Shown here: piece after piece, positions 8,758 through 13,055 of the stretch
Position numbering within the stretch: position 1 is the first letter of the stretch
How the letters are laid out: each line of letters opens with the position of its first letter
Source of the DNA: Microthyrium microscopicum
Lineage: Eukaryota
NCBI GenBank assembly: GCA_010405405.1
Contig: MU004230.1
Span: 1,026,627 to 1,090,626, forward strand
Direction of reading: 5' to 3'
Length of the DNA: 64,000 bases
The notes under the pieces: model-generated
Told to the model about the DNA's origin: nothing
The model's input: only the letters and a program-made list of their open reading frames with translations
The model's database searches: none
Translations under genes and position numbers: made by a program

Positions 8758-9584
8758 CTATTCGATTCTGGGAATTGAAGCATTAGCTTTCGTTTGTTCT
8801 GACACGTATGATGGAAAGAAAGGATTGATACGAATGCCGAAGGCCCAAAATGGTTCCATGGTCAAAACAAGGTTGACTATGAGAGCCTCATATCAGAAAG
8901 ACAAGGGTGACTTACCGCTGAATAAGGTGTAGACCGGACGCGGTCTCGATGATTCCGCTCACTTCGCCCGGCTGCAGGGCGAAAGAAGCTTCCTCAAACT
9001 CCTTTTGCATGTCGCCCTGTCCAAAGAAACCGCTGGAAAATGGTCAGTCGAGCTAGGCTTCAACAGTAATAGTCCTGGGACAGGTAAGGGGCACCAGTCA
9101 GTGACTTACAGATCACCACGCTTTCTAGCGCTGCTGCAATCCGACTCTGATGTTGCAATGTCTCCGAGTGTCTTTTCGCCTGACTTGATTTGAGCCTCAT
9201 GGGCCTGAAGGATCTCGCGAGCTTCCTCCTTGGATCGAGTGATTTTGCTTTCACGCCAGCTGGAAGGGCGTCGGCTGCCATTGTGCTTGATCAAGAGATG
9301 TGCAGCTCGTATTTTGCCTTCGCTGCCATTAGCTGCGGTGGAGCGGTTGATACCGGCACTGCTATGATGGGTAGACATGTGCTCCTTCAGCTTGTTGGTA
9401 TCAGAACCCTCTGGAGGCTCCCAGCGAGATTCTTTGGTGTCTGCATTGAAATAGTATGGCAGATTTTTGGAATTGGAGATTCGAATTTCCCATCCCGAAG
9501 GAAGTCCAGTAGTATCAGGCTAGGTATGAATTAGTACCACTGAAAGACTAGCTAAGTTACAATGGGATGACAAACAGATACCAT
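8758..9584 (-). CDS. ESS1: Parvulin-type peptidyl-prolyl isomerase with WW domain (Ess1/Pin1/Ssp1)
   Basis: Exons 9584-9582 (ATG only), 9519-9110, 9032-8916, 8767-8758. WW domain GLPSGWEIRISNSKNLPYYFN..SRWEPP; PPIase [66 protein letters not shown]. Confidence 0.95.
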
Positions 9585-10772
9585 GATTTTTAGCTTGTAT
9601 TTGGACGTCTGGGAGATGCTACAATGGATAGAACTTTATGAAGCCAAGGTGGACGCTGCGATGTGGAGCGGGAATTGTTGAAAATGGTCTTGGTGGTGAG
9701 CTGGGAGGACGTCTGGTGGTTGTCCAGGCAATTCCATCCCCCACATGGCTCAAGGAAGGCGCGAAGAGGAGCTTTTGCGCTAGCATCACGTGTGAGGGAG
9801 GGGTGACTTCCTCATCAAAGTTGACCACGTGTGTGGCGGCGGGATTAGCCGCTTCATTCAATTTTAGTCAGCAAACATTTGAAGAAGGCTTGATTTTTAT
9901 AGCGCTAGGTACCGTATTCATGAGGTCAAGAAATTGCATATACAACGACCACTATTGAAGTTCTTTCAAATATACTTAACGGGCCATTTGTATATCCCGT
10001 CATAGGTTTAAAGAATCTCTTTGTTAGTCATTTGCTAGCATTTCAGGTTTGACGCAACCGTTTTCCTGCCGCCTGCAAATCAAAGCTCGGTTTATGCTTT
10101 TCGATGGGGACGACTGATGACTGGTGTCTTGGAGGCAAAATGCTAAGCCTTGTTTGAGTTTGTGATCGTGCTCTTTATTATTCAGAATCTGAGTCTGGTC
10201 ACTCTTAGCATCTGCTCAGATTCTGAAATTACCTAGTAGCTGCAAATGGTACTACCAGCTGCTAGTAAAAGAACATAGGGTAGTAACTTCAATTTCCAAA
10301 GGAAAAAATCAAGATCCGGGATAGTTTGAAATAGAAGATAATTTCTAAGCAAAATGGGATCAAGATTCAAGTGCATTCCAAAGCAATAACGGTTGACTAG
10401 GAAAGAGCAACTTATGAGCTCCTGTAGCCCCCGTGCTCCCCTGCGCCCCCACAACTTGACCTTTCAACCTTTCCAACCTCTCCCAAAGTTCCTAGAGAGT
10501 TCCTAATCCAAACACCGCAACCCTACCAAAGCCTACTACGCCTACTACCAACTACTACAAAGAAACATTACTCACCTTCTCCTCATCACTCATTCTGTCT
10601 TTGACTTTCTGAGCCTTAAATCATCTTAACCTCTAGACCCTTCCCTTTCCTTCCTCCTACACCTTTCTCACTTCACCATAAACTGGACCGCTTGCCTGAC
10701 CAATTCTTTTCCCTTTCAACATCCATTTCCTCTGACTAGTAGATATTCCTTTGCAACATCTGACACGTCAAC

Positions 10773-11751
10773 ATGTCAAATAACGACGTCGAGGCGAGTG
10801 GTAGCACTCAACAACCCAAAATCACATTCAAATTCTGCCGCGAATGGTATGTTACAGCTAGTAGTCATTCTGCGCCACATCAGCTAATGAACACTTTCTA
10901 AATTTAGCTCAAACCTGTTATATCCACAAGAAGACCGCGAAAATAGTAAACTCGTCTTCGCATGCCGTAGCTGTCCCTACAGTGAACCTCCAATCTCCGA
11001 ATTAGTCCACCAAAACGATCTCAGCAACAAGGTCGGCGAGACTGCCGGAATTACTCAGGACATTGGTCAAGACCCAACGGTTCGTGCTGCGTCCTTCTTT
11101 CCCGAGTTGTGCACCATGTGTGGTCAAGAGATCCTATGCGATACCTGCGGGAAACCTAACGCACACGGCGTCTGGTTGGAAGTGGACGCGAATGGCGACG
11201 AGACCTCCGCAACCGACCCCTACGCTGCAACCACCGATGCCGAATCCTTCCTCTACAGCGACGATATGCTCAACGATCCTGCGAATAACATTTTCAGCGA
11301 TGGCGTTGAAATCGACTTTTACGATGAAGACATGCTGAGCGATCCCCCCTCGGACGACGATCACGGCGAATACTACATTGCAGACACGAACGGCTACAGT
11401 CACGGAGGTCCCGTCTACATGAATGGATTCGCGCAGTCAAAACCCGAAGAGAAAGAGGCGGATAATCAGCCAGCGCCCGTAGCATAGTGGATCTCTTCAT
11501 CACCAGGGTCTGCATGATTCTGAAGCGAATTCACTTGGCTAACTTGCGATTTTCATATTATTAGCTGCCCCGTATCCAAAAGACTTGTCCCGCTTGTGGC
11601 GAGAACGAAGCCGTCCATTTCCAGTCCCAGCAACGTACCGCCGAAACAGGAATGGTAAGTCACGTTCTTCTTCACCTTACTTCTCTTGCTTACTTTGCCT
11701 TTCTAGAAATTATACTTCGTCTGCGTACAGTGTGGTAACGTCTGGCAGTGA
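10773..11751 (+). CDS. RPB9: RNA polymerase II subunit Rpb9 (canonical spliced form, 126 aa)
   Basis: Exons 10773-10846, 10908-11079, 11565-11654, 11707-11751. N-terminal Zn ribbon FKFCRECSNLLYPQED..FACRSC; linker GETAGITQDIGQDPTLPR; C-terminal ribbon CPACGENEAVHFQSQQRTAETGMKLYFVCVQCG. Confidence 0.95.
11080..11487 (+). CDS. Putative alternative terminal coding region of RPB9 inside intron 2 (135 aa: CxxC-x5-CxxC plus acidic tail)
   Basis: In frame with exon 2 and open for 135 codons: VRAASFFPELCTMCGQEILCDTCGKP...DPPSDDDHGEYY...PAPVA*. Many C-ending codons. Confidence 0.6.
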   Translation, partial: VRAASFFPELCTMCGQEILCDTCGKPNAHGVWLEVDANGDETSATDPYAATTDAESFLYSDDMLNDPANNIFSDGVEIDFYDEDMLSDPPSDDDHGEYYIADTNGYSHGGPVYMNGFAQSKPEEKEADNQPAPVA

Positions 11752-12387
11752 GCGTCAGAAGAATATGATGTTCATGCATGAGTGAAAGCAGTCCGAAGTA
11801 TACATGACTTATGAATTGCATGTAATCATTGGTTACGTCTGGCGCTGGAAGGTTGCTCAACATGAGCCAATTGTTTGCGATATAGATAATCCCATACCGA
11901 TTCTTCCTTCCAACCTTGCTATGTCTCGTTTGATGACTAATAAAATAGAACACTAATGGCCAATGTACGCATTTATCATTTCAATGTCTGGAGACACTCC
12001 CATCGCCCTGGAGAGAATGAAAACTCGATCCAGAGGGTGAGGCTGAAAACGCTTATTAGAGAGTAGTCAACATACGAGATATTGAATTTCAAAACAGACA
12101 GCCTTAGGACATAACCTTTTTCTGTGAAACTTTTCTTATGGGCCCCGAATTGACTGACCTAGTGGCCATGGTTCAAGTGGACAATAGTTCTGCTCATTCA
12201 TATCAATCCCCGATTTCGATTGGCCCATTGACATGCAATCCCAAAATCGAGTTGTCAAATTCACCAGTGGCCCAACTTGCCTTAACGTCCACCATAGAAT
12301 TCCGTAATCTGCGGGTAGCAGTCAACACCATGCACATAGAGTATCTGTAAGCTCTCGTGGTGGGGCCGATTCAGAAAATACAACAAA

Positions 12388-13055
12388 ATGTATTGTGATA
12401 TACGCATCTCCGCTTTCAAGACGTGGCCTAGAAGCAATTACACCAAGACTCCGCATCATGATAGTTTCCGAAGTCTTCGCGATTCTGTGCAGCTTGGCTG
12501 CCCTGCTTGCAAGAAGCTCCTTCAAATGCTGCCGGACGGAAACTGCATCGAGATTTGGGGTGGAGTGGCTCCTTGCACGGAATGCCATCAAGAAAATATG
12601 GCTTCAATGATGATCTCAAGGTGCATGTGTTTTTCTCTCCTAAATGGCTTTCAAATATCCTCTCAGGAAACAAGCCGCGGTCCAGCCTTGGGAAAGCAAA
12701 CAAGCATCCGCACTTGTGCATACCAAGTGTTGCGTCTTGGAACCCGTCAGATCCTTTTGCAACATCAAGCCACTGTTGGGGTTCAGACTCTAATCAAGTT
12801 GCAAGACTCGAGGCGGTCAATCTTCAGACGTTAATAGAGAAGATCGACACTTCAGGCTTACCGCAAACCTTCAAGAATGCTATTGATATCACGAGACTAT
12901 TTGGGCTAAGGTCTCTTTGGACCGATAGCCTCTGTATCATTGCCTCAACTCCTTCTACTGGGCAATTCGTTCGCATATGTAAATTGGACTTCACAGATCA
13001 CAGAGTGGAGGAAATACTTGCCTTCTTTGAAGATAGGATCATCGTTATTAGTTAG
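12388..13055 (+). pseudogene. Degenerate HET (heterokaryon incompatibility) domain gene
   Basis: N-terminal HHDSFRSLRDSVQLGCPAC is in one frame. The HET core (ATSSHCWG...LPQTFKNAIDITRLFGLRSLWTDSLCII; consensus-like LSHCWG and YLWIDSLCIIQD) is in another frame and breaks off after SLCII. Confidence 0.7.

Follow-up and report, generated by a model that had tools for sequence, protein, structure and literature searches.

What is an unusually long intron with an open reading frame (ORF) doing in the gene for a core subunit of RNA polymerase II (Pol II)? The question arises in a 64,000-nucleotide stretch of contig MU004230.1 (here the window; all positions refer to it) from Microthyrium microscopicum, a member of the Dothideomycetes, order Microthyriales. 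There, intron 2 of RPB9 falls between the codons for DPT and LPR, where the linker of Rpb9 meets its second zinc ribbon, and exon 2 reads on into the intron in frame if it is not removed. The evidence below strongly supports a second C-terminal coding region hidden inside intron 2, and we think it probable that RPB9 is a two-output gene in which retention of intron 2 gives a conserved alternative isoform, composed of the N-terminal zinc ribbon (Zn1), the linker, a four-cysteine knuckle, and an acidic tail.

An initial annotation of this DNA had proposed such a hidden region, describing a 485-nucleotide intron with the donor GTTCGT at DPT/LPR, a 135-codon frame running to a TAG at 11485–11487 and including CTMC-GQEIL-CDTC, and products of 126 and 217 amino acids that share their first 82 residues. 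The length, donor, and position of the intron are all confirmed by the sequence and by joints in RNA, and translation reproduces the frame, the motif, and both products. The accompanying remark that most introns here are 45–100 nucleotides was checked against introns 1 and 3 of RPB9 (61 and 52 nucleotides) and holds for both. The core of that proposal, a second C-terminal coding region within RPB9 intron 2, is strongly supported too, the frame and the motif being conserved under purifying selection.

The spliced product has both domains by which Rpb9/POLR2I is recognized, PF02150 (Zn_ribbon_RPB9) in the N-terminal part (E 3.9e-13, 49.5 bits, cut-off 25.2) and PF01096 (Zn_ribbon_TFIIS), which is found in exon 3 alone (E 5.1e-8, 33.1 bits, cut-off 21), the two being linked by splicing at DPT/LPR. 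Without splicing, the frame of exon 2 continues through FPELCTMCGQEILCDTCGKPN and then into the acidic tail, and in the resulting 217-residue protein PF02150 is the sole Pfam match, PF01096 being absent. A model identical to this read-through product exists at NCBI for Microthyrium microscopicum. Its stop codon lies 80 nucleotides before the 3′ splice site of intron 2 and 167 nucleotides upstream of the exon 3/exon 4 junction, and a CTAAC box (11539–11543) lies 26 nucleotides from the intron 2 acceptor.

The composition of intron 2 is divided. When the intron is shuffled with its dinucleotides preserved, 15 of 5,000 shuffles are open for at least 135 codons, with a median of 17 codons. The coding-like, C-ending codons and the acidic, aromatic tail that had been noted at the outset are both there: 61 of the 135 codons end in C (GC content 0.55, and 0.64 at third codon positions), and the 112-residue tail has 23% Asp+Glu, 3% Lys+Arg, and 11% aromatic residues. 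In the 77 nucleotides after the stop the GC content falls to 0.40, so that the composition is coding-like up to the stop codon and intron-like beyond it; introns 1 and 3 have GC contents of 0.38 and 0.40. Other uses of the intron were also considered. An Rfam scan of 10000–12500 on both strands at E≤1 gave no matches, and hence no known intron-hosted RNA (small nucleolar RNA or other). A 100-amino-acid minus-strand ORF at 11134–11436 has no Pfam family and its triplets line up with the sense codons; it was rejected as antisense coding sequence because the variable sense third positions described below would be antisense first positions. Nor does the intron offer another in-frame donor by which the module could be placed ahead of exon 3, as it is in the Cryomyces and Podospora models described below: beyond the known donor, no GTNNG[TC] occurs in 11080–11487.

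Searching with the extension alone retrieved three proteins at 49–57% identity, and these closest relatives share FPE(F/L)CTMCGQEILC..CG.PN..GVWLEV and DFYDE.MLSDP.SDDD.GEY.I with the window. Scanning of metagenome contigs with two peptide patterns yielded 11 RPB9 loci, and in all 11 the ORF bearing the motif CTMCGQE(I/V)xCxxC is continuous with an RPB9 exon 2 ending in DPT, in the same frame and with no intervening stop. Canonical exon 3 is found downstream in nine of these, and the contigs of the other two end 180 and 286 nucleotides after the donor. Seven loci are complete, and in these intron 2 is 259–485 nucleotides long and intron 3 (found in six) 45–67, making intron 2 four to nine times longer than its neighbors. 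The donor is GT[T/G][G/C]GT in all seven, departing from consensus at +3/+4; the ORF fills 63–84% of intron 2 and stops 72–118 nucleotides before the acceptor. Only one of the seven lengths (273 nucleotides) is a multiple of 3, and all seven introns contain a stop.

The manner in which these sequences vary points to translation. Among eight mutually distinct loci, the 14 codons of C-T-M-C-G-Q-E-I-x-C-x-x-C-G are variable at 3, 4, and 13 of 14 sites for codon positions 1, 2, and 3, respectively, and wherever an invariant residue can be encoded in more than one way, two or more codons are in use, only ATG being fixed. This pattern is the signature of a translated sequence, and not of an RNA or DNA element. 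Nei-Gojobori counts over a 30-codon core (36 pairs of nine sequences) gave pS values of 0.61–1.10 and pN values of 0.20–0.42; dN/dS is 0.15–0.41 in the nine pairs with computable dS, with 26 others saturated at synonymous sites and one near-identical. By these counts the retained sequence evolves as protein-coding, as a coding intron-retention isoform should. The initial annotation had pointed to orthologous introns as the place where the frame and the Cys motif should persist under purifying selection, and this is what we see in the 11 loci.

The extension reaches well beyond these loci. A profile built from nine intron ORFs matched 201 proteins at E≤0.01; our statements on taxa draw on the best 120 matches of each search, and the best 120 of these 201 include 23 species-named records, all of which we take to be Dothideomycetes. 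Seven of the 23 were checked and represent six orders: Microthyriales, Pleosporales, Mycosphaerellales, Venturiales, Botryosphaeriales, and Mytilinidiales. An exhaustive hidden Markov model search of 1.84 billion representatives gave 66 matches at E≤1e-3, of which 64 are RPB9 read-through forms or fragments: 51 have DPT-V ahead of the motif by a pattern test and 13 are fragments or slight variants, and one of the matches is a fused RPB9 gene model. The remaining two are bacterial surface or carbohydrate-binding proteins that we take as spurious, and in this search the four-cysteine module is seen only in an RPB9 context. Among 278 proteins that were fetched, 266 carry CxxC-x5-CxxC, and in 255 the motif follows DP[TS]-[VIMA] with a spacer of 6–69 residues, the frame being kept despite this range. 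The consensus is P-[DE]-F-C-T-[ML]-C-G-Q-E-I-x-C-x-x-C-G, and its four Cys and the Gly that follows the second Cys never vary in an alignment of 149 sequences.

Read-through forms also occur in Arthoniomycetes (Coniocarpon), Coniocybomycetes (Sclerophora), Lecanoromycetes (Lobaria checked, in a set of records that we take to span eight genera), and Candelariomycetes (Candelaria checked; Candelina presumably belongs here too). The post-DPT segments of these four other classes score 16–52 bits against the profile, and the maximum for 320 shuffles is 7.7 bits. Two Podospora models (Sordariomycetes) score 6.4 and 0.6 bits, within the range of the shuffles, yet C..CG....C..C, the invariant pattern, is present in both at the corresponding position; it arose in 2 and 3 of 200,000 shuffles. 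As judged from these sequences, the extension is present in at least five classes of leotiomyceta, and Sordariomycetes are probably a sixth. Eurotiomycetes, Leotiomycetes, and earlier-diverging classes are not among the named records in the best 120 matches of each search.

A few records are built differently. In three Cryomyces and two Podospora models, the four-cysteine module and the canonical TFIIS-type ribbon are in one frame; the module may be an internal insert in some lineages, or these may be prediction artefacts. A 226-residue model from Acrodontium crateriforme contains the module, further sequence, and then the canonical ribbon's last knuckle (LFFVCCECQHVW); the gene model was probably mis-joined. 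An assembly assigned to the tree Carpinus fangiana includes an RPB9 read-through form of fungal type (46.9 bits against the extension profile), probably because fungal DNA is present in this plant assembly.

The extension resembles no described domain in the searches we made. It has no Pfam family at E≤0.1, its profile matches solved structures only at E values of 4.6 and 8.5, a fold search of its model against solved structures returned no chain at Z≥2, and the best score in the ESM Atlas (0.82) is within the range for shuffled proteins. AlphaFold2, run with 149 sequences, gives predicted local distance difference test (pLDDT) values of 81–86 and isolated beta-bridges for extension residues 11–30, which form the knuckle, and pLDDT values of 47–68 for the rest, which is predicted to be disordered; in the model of the full 217-residue protein only Zn1 is confident. 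The 13-residue CxxC-x5-CxxC knuckle is probably a single zinc site. A TFIIS-type ribbon can be set aside, since the five-residue spacing rules it out and there is no match to Pfam or to solved structures. Retroviral-type CCHC zinc knuckles have the spacing C-x2-C-x4-H-x4-C, whereas the extension has C-x2-C-x5-C-x2-C without a His ligand, and it gave no Pfam zf-CCHC match. Alignment of the extension with exon 3 by hhalign yielded 31% probability over nine columns, a generic CxxCG match only, and the sequences do not support an origin by duplication of the canonical ribbon.

Beyond the knuckle, tails in 266 proteins have a median length of 46 amino acids, with 25.5% Asp+Glu and 6% Lys+Arg. Short motifs recur in them (Table 1) and presumably resemble kinase sites; by eye, RERxLS is found in Mycosphaerellales-type sequences and KHSSK in Pleosporales-type ones. 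The conservation of tail endings argues that translation runs to the stop.

Transcripts of the locus were followed in RNA contigs from two runs over 10300–12300, X1 (78% of sampled words) and X2 (a soil metatranscriptome). These are assembled contigs, not reads; they cannot show RNA ends, and a hole in them proves nothing. One X1 contig (contig 1, depth 1643) joins 10846/10908 and 11079/11565, another (contig 3, depth 884) joins 11654/11707 and ends at 11961, and the 11079/11565 joint is also present in X2. The canonical spliced mRNA is real, and it is deeper than the intron-bearing RNA. That RNA is represented by X1 contig 2 (depth 544), which covers 11128–11593 unbroken, placing intron 2 (11128–11564) contiguous with exon 3, and no unspliced contig for intron 1 or intron 3 was found among the X1 and X2 contigs. 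DNA carry-over does not explain contig 2, because depth is zero outside 10609–11961. The suggestion in the initial annotation of a splice or polyadenylation switch fares differently in its two halves: a splice switch fits these RNAs, with the spliced joint and intron 2 RNA both present, and a polyadenylation switch is unsupported. No AATAAA was seen on reading the 77 nucleotides after the stop, and the continuation of the intron contig into exon 3 means that these molecules, at least, did not arise by intronic polyadenylation.

Several observations weigh against a retained, translated isoform, and we consider them together with the explanations that they favor. In several related loci frame +1 of intron 2, too, has no stop for 79–106 codons, or none at all, and openness by itself is therefore weak evidence; this second open frame has no conserved motif of its own and is probably a side effect of acidic-codon composition. 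It could be argued from this, from the lack of a Pfam family for the extension, and from the habit of automatic pipelines to read through introns, that the frame is open by chance in an ordinary long intron and that the 217-residue database entries are gene-prediction artefacts. We find this scarcely credible given how seldom shuffles are as open, the presence of frame and motif in every one of the 11 loci, the concentration of change at third codon positions with dN/dS well below one, and profile scores in four other classes that lie above those of all shuffles. A further point is that mean column identity is 29% in the extension and 81% in exon 3, and the extension is poorly conserved outside its core and a few lineage-specific tail motifs.

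The RNA has its own weak places. No contig covers 11079–11127, and continuity from exon 2 into intron 2 is thus unseen in RNA, a gap that the rule of the tool counts as neutral. Contig 2 starts at 11128, inside the codons of the four-cysteine motif and directly after 14 adapter letters; this start could be where a fragment ends, could be the true 5′ end of an RNA, or could come from the assembly, and many RNA fragments may begin there. Part of the contig may also be nascent pre-mRNA, the library type of X1 being unrecorded. The position of the start after adapter letters is what would be expected if the intron RNA were a separate transcript or stable fragment from about 11128, arising by internal initiation or as a decay intermediate, that does not encode the fusion. 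Such a start would cut the conserved motif in two, and would leave unexplained why the motif is in frame with exon 2 in all the metagenome loci and follows the DPT position in 255 of 278 proteins; in addition, contigs cannot locate an RNA end. We regard a separate RNA as very improbable.

A stop upstream of a spliced junction can make an mRNA a substrate of nonsense-mediated decay (NMD). The retained mRNA could be such a substrate, which would keep protein output low; it may be NMD-sensitive because its stop lies well before the exon 3/exon 4 junction, and this sensitivity could make the isoform rare or condition-dependent. Taken further, intron 2 retention might be a dose control, in which unproductive splicing and NMD set the level of canonical Rpb9 and the peptide has little function, and this would suit the weak donor and long intron in all seven complete loci, the spliced intron 167 nucleotides downstream of the stop, and the occurrence of intron-bearing RNA alongside the spliced form. 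Dose control, however, needs only a stop, and leaves unexplained the five invariant residues in 149 sequences, the near-restriction of variation to third positions with low dN/dS, the conserved C-terminal tail motifs, and an ORF that fills most of the intron. It seems to us quite unlikely. Finally, zinc binding, entry into Pol II, and the role of the tail are matters that we infer rather than observe.

Table 1. Features of the RPB9 locus in the window and recurrent motifs of the tails
Feature	Position	Strand	Basis
RPB9 transcribed extent	10609..11961	+	X1 RNA contigs; zero depth on either side
RPB9 exon 1, ATG at 10773, first half of N-terminal zinc ribbon	10773..10846	+	Sequence; joint 10846/10908
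Intron 1, 61 nucleotides, donor GTATGT, GT..AG	10847..10907	+	RNA joint
RPB9 exon 2, rest of Zn1 and linker, ends GAC CCA ACG (DPT), common to both products	10908..11079	+	Sequence; RNA
Intron 2, 485 nucleotides, GTTCGT...TTAG; removed for canonical Rpb9, alternative C-terminus if retained	11080..11564	+	RNA joint in X1 and X2; unspliced X1 contig
Non-consensus donor GTTCGT, also extension codons Val-Arg	11080..11085	+	Sequence
Putative alternative coding extension, 135 codons and TAG (11485–11487)	11080..11487	+	Open frame; protein-level conservation
Four-cysteine knuckle C-T-M-C-G-Q-E-I-L-C-D-T-C-G, conserved core	11110..11151	+	Alignment; codon-position pattern; AlphaFold2
Acidic aromatic tail motif DFYDEDMLSDPPSDDDHGEYYI	11314..11379	+	Invariant columns D79–I100 in 5 sequences (closest relatives of the window)
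Noncoding 3′ part of intron 2, branch-point-like CTAAC at 11539–11543, acceptor TTAG	11488..11564	+	GC 0.40; sequence
Exon 3, starts LPR; first part of canonical TFIIS-type C-terminal ribbon (LPR...CPACG...FQSQQR)	11565..11654	+	PF01096; RNA joint
Intron 3, 52 nucleotides, donor GTAAGT	11655..11706	+	RNA joint
Exon 4, second knuckle of canonical ribbon (KLYFVCVQCGNVWQ), TGA at 11749–11751	11707..11751	+	Sequence; RNA
Tail motif G-x(2,3)-[LFI]-E-[AVT]			194/266 tails
Tail motif [ST]DPxS[DEI][DE], group of the window			26/266 tails
Tail motif RERx(1,2)S			30/266 tails
Tail motif, KHSSK-like ending			26/266 tails

On the reading that we prefer, RPB9 has two outputs here and in many Pezizomycotina: splicing of intron 2 gives the 126-residue Rpb9 with Zn1, the linker, and the TFIIS-like second ribbon (Zn2), and retention would give the 217-residue protein, with Zn1 and the whole linker (residues 1–82) followed by the knuckle and a long, disordered acidic tail studded with aromatic residues. 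Retention is likely regulated, because the donor is off-consensus at +3/+4 and the intron is unusually long, and both features are conserved; its second role, as codons for Val-Gly or Val-Arg, may be part of the reason why the donor is off-consensus. We predict from the sequence that the read-through mRNA is translated into the Zn1–linker–knuckle–tail protein. In structures of Pol II, Zn1 and the linker are the part that anchors Rpb9, and because the read-through protein keeps this half, it may take the place of Rpb9 on the polymerase. Functions that depend on Zn2 include TFIIS-linked proofreading and fidelity, contact with TFIIE, and ultraviolet-induced turnover of Rpb1. In a Pol II lacking Zn2 these would be expected to change, and functions of Zn1 and the linker would remain. 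The acidic tail would then lie near the jaw as a docking or DNA-mimic element; we speculate on this from its composition, which combines aromatic and acidic residues with CK2-like Ser-x-x-acidic sites.

The same evidence of selection and breadth fits equally well with a read-through protein that is real and selected but acts off Pol II, as a free zinc-binding acidic factor, a competitor for Rpb9 partners, or a subunit of another complex, and long disordered tails with lineage-specific short motifs are typical of docking or phosphorylation sites. We consider this unlikely, as what is retained in 255 of 278 proteins is exactly Zn1 and the full linker to DPT, the polymerase-anchoring part, and as yeast fragments consisting of Zn1 and the linker act in transcription (PMC9638876). 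According to the same paper, Zn1 and the linker suffice for ATG1 transcription and autophagy in yeast, and Zn2 mutations are without effect there; since Zn1 and the linker work without Zn2, a natural form lacking Zn2 on Pol II could keep part of Rpb9 function.

The neighborhood of RPB9 was compared as well. Head-to-head with RPB9, at 9106–9519 on the minus strand, is an ESS1/Pin1-type gene encoding WW and PPIase domains, in agreement with the ESS1 neighbor named in the initial annotation. The same opposite-strand neighbor lies upstream of RPB9 in nine of the 11 metagenome loci, at 61–68% identity, and the other two have too little upstream sequence. The pairing of a gene for an isomerase of the Pol II C-terminal domain with a gene for a Pol II subunit thus appears conserved. 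A broader scheme, possible but somewhat doubtful and offered tentatively, is that filamentous ascomycetes have had two kinds of Pol II since before the classes of leotiomyceta split, one with ordinary Rpb9 and one with the knuckle and an acidic, probably phosphorylated tail, their ratio being set by weak-donor splicing in a gene head-to-head with ESS1. The two would differ in proofreading or backtracking, in contacts with TFIIE and TFIIH, or in damage-induced turnover, and splicing would thereby switch core properties of transcription.

Known systems resemble the read-through form only in part. Canonical Rpb9/POLR2I, with PF02150 and PF01096, comes from the same gene and has the same first 82 residues, the spliced product being ordinary Rpb9; the alternative product lacks PF01096 and has the CxxC-x5-CxxC knuckle and the 112-residue tail instead. 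The C-terminal ribbons of TFIIS, Rpa12.2, and Rpc11 likewise present four Cys as two CxxC(G) knuckles after the same linker, but there the knuckles are about 24 residues apart, whereas those of the extension are five apart, with no room for the beta-hairpin of about 20–25 residues that separates the knuckles of a TFIIS-type ribbon. As in intron-retention isoforms and exitrons, retention here continues the frame and changes the protein. The length of an exitron is divisible by 3 and its frame lacks a stop, so that retention inserts residues; RPB9 intron 2 differs in that 485 is not a multiple of 3 and a TAG is in frame, so that the C-terminus would be replaced rather than a segment inserted. 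To our knowledge, it is unusual for a retained intron of a fungus to be conserved as protein from one class to another. Sigma-70 region 1.1, the Pol I 'expander', and the acidic-aromatic motifs that bind the PH domain of TFIIH p62/Tfb1 are disordered acidic segments with interspersed aromatics, tethered near the polymerase jaw and DNA entry side, and the tail resembles them in composition only. Engineered yeast Rpb9 forms, the Zn1–linker fragment 1–52 and the C75/78/103/106A mutant described in PMC9638876, likewise keep Zn1 and the linker while Zn2 is missing or not functional. They were constructed in the laboratory in Saccharomyces, whereas here the form without Zn2 is naturally encoded and conserved, with an added domain.

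Public databases already contain read-through sequences, entered as automatic 'hypothetical protein' or 'RPB9' models, and a search of full-text literature, with subscription journals and supplements outside its scope, found no paper on such an Rpb9 isoform or motif. Many database 'RPB9' entries in these fungi hold the read-through form only, which leaves those proteomes without the canonical protein; the dual output of RPB9 appears to have gone unremarked. Our best reading is that the locus encodes, for a core Pol II subunit, an alternative isoform that is conserved and carries a module not described before. Start-site choice, fidelity, transcription-coupled repair, and Rpb1 turnover involve the two ribbons of Rpb9 in separable ways, as PMC9638876 documents in part. 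If the reading is true, a large fungal branch, including many plant pathogens and lichen fungi, would be able to alter, through splicing, what core Pol II is made of.

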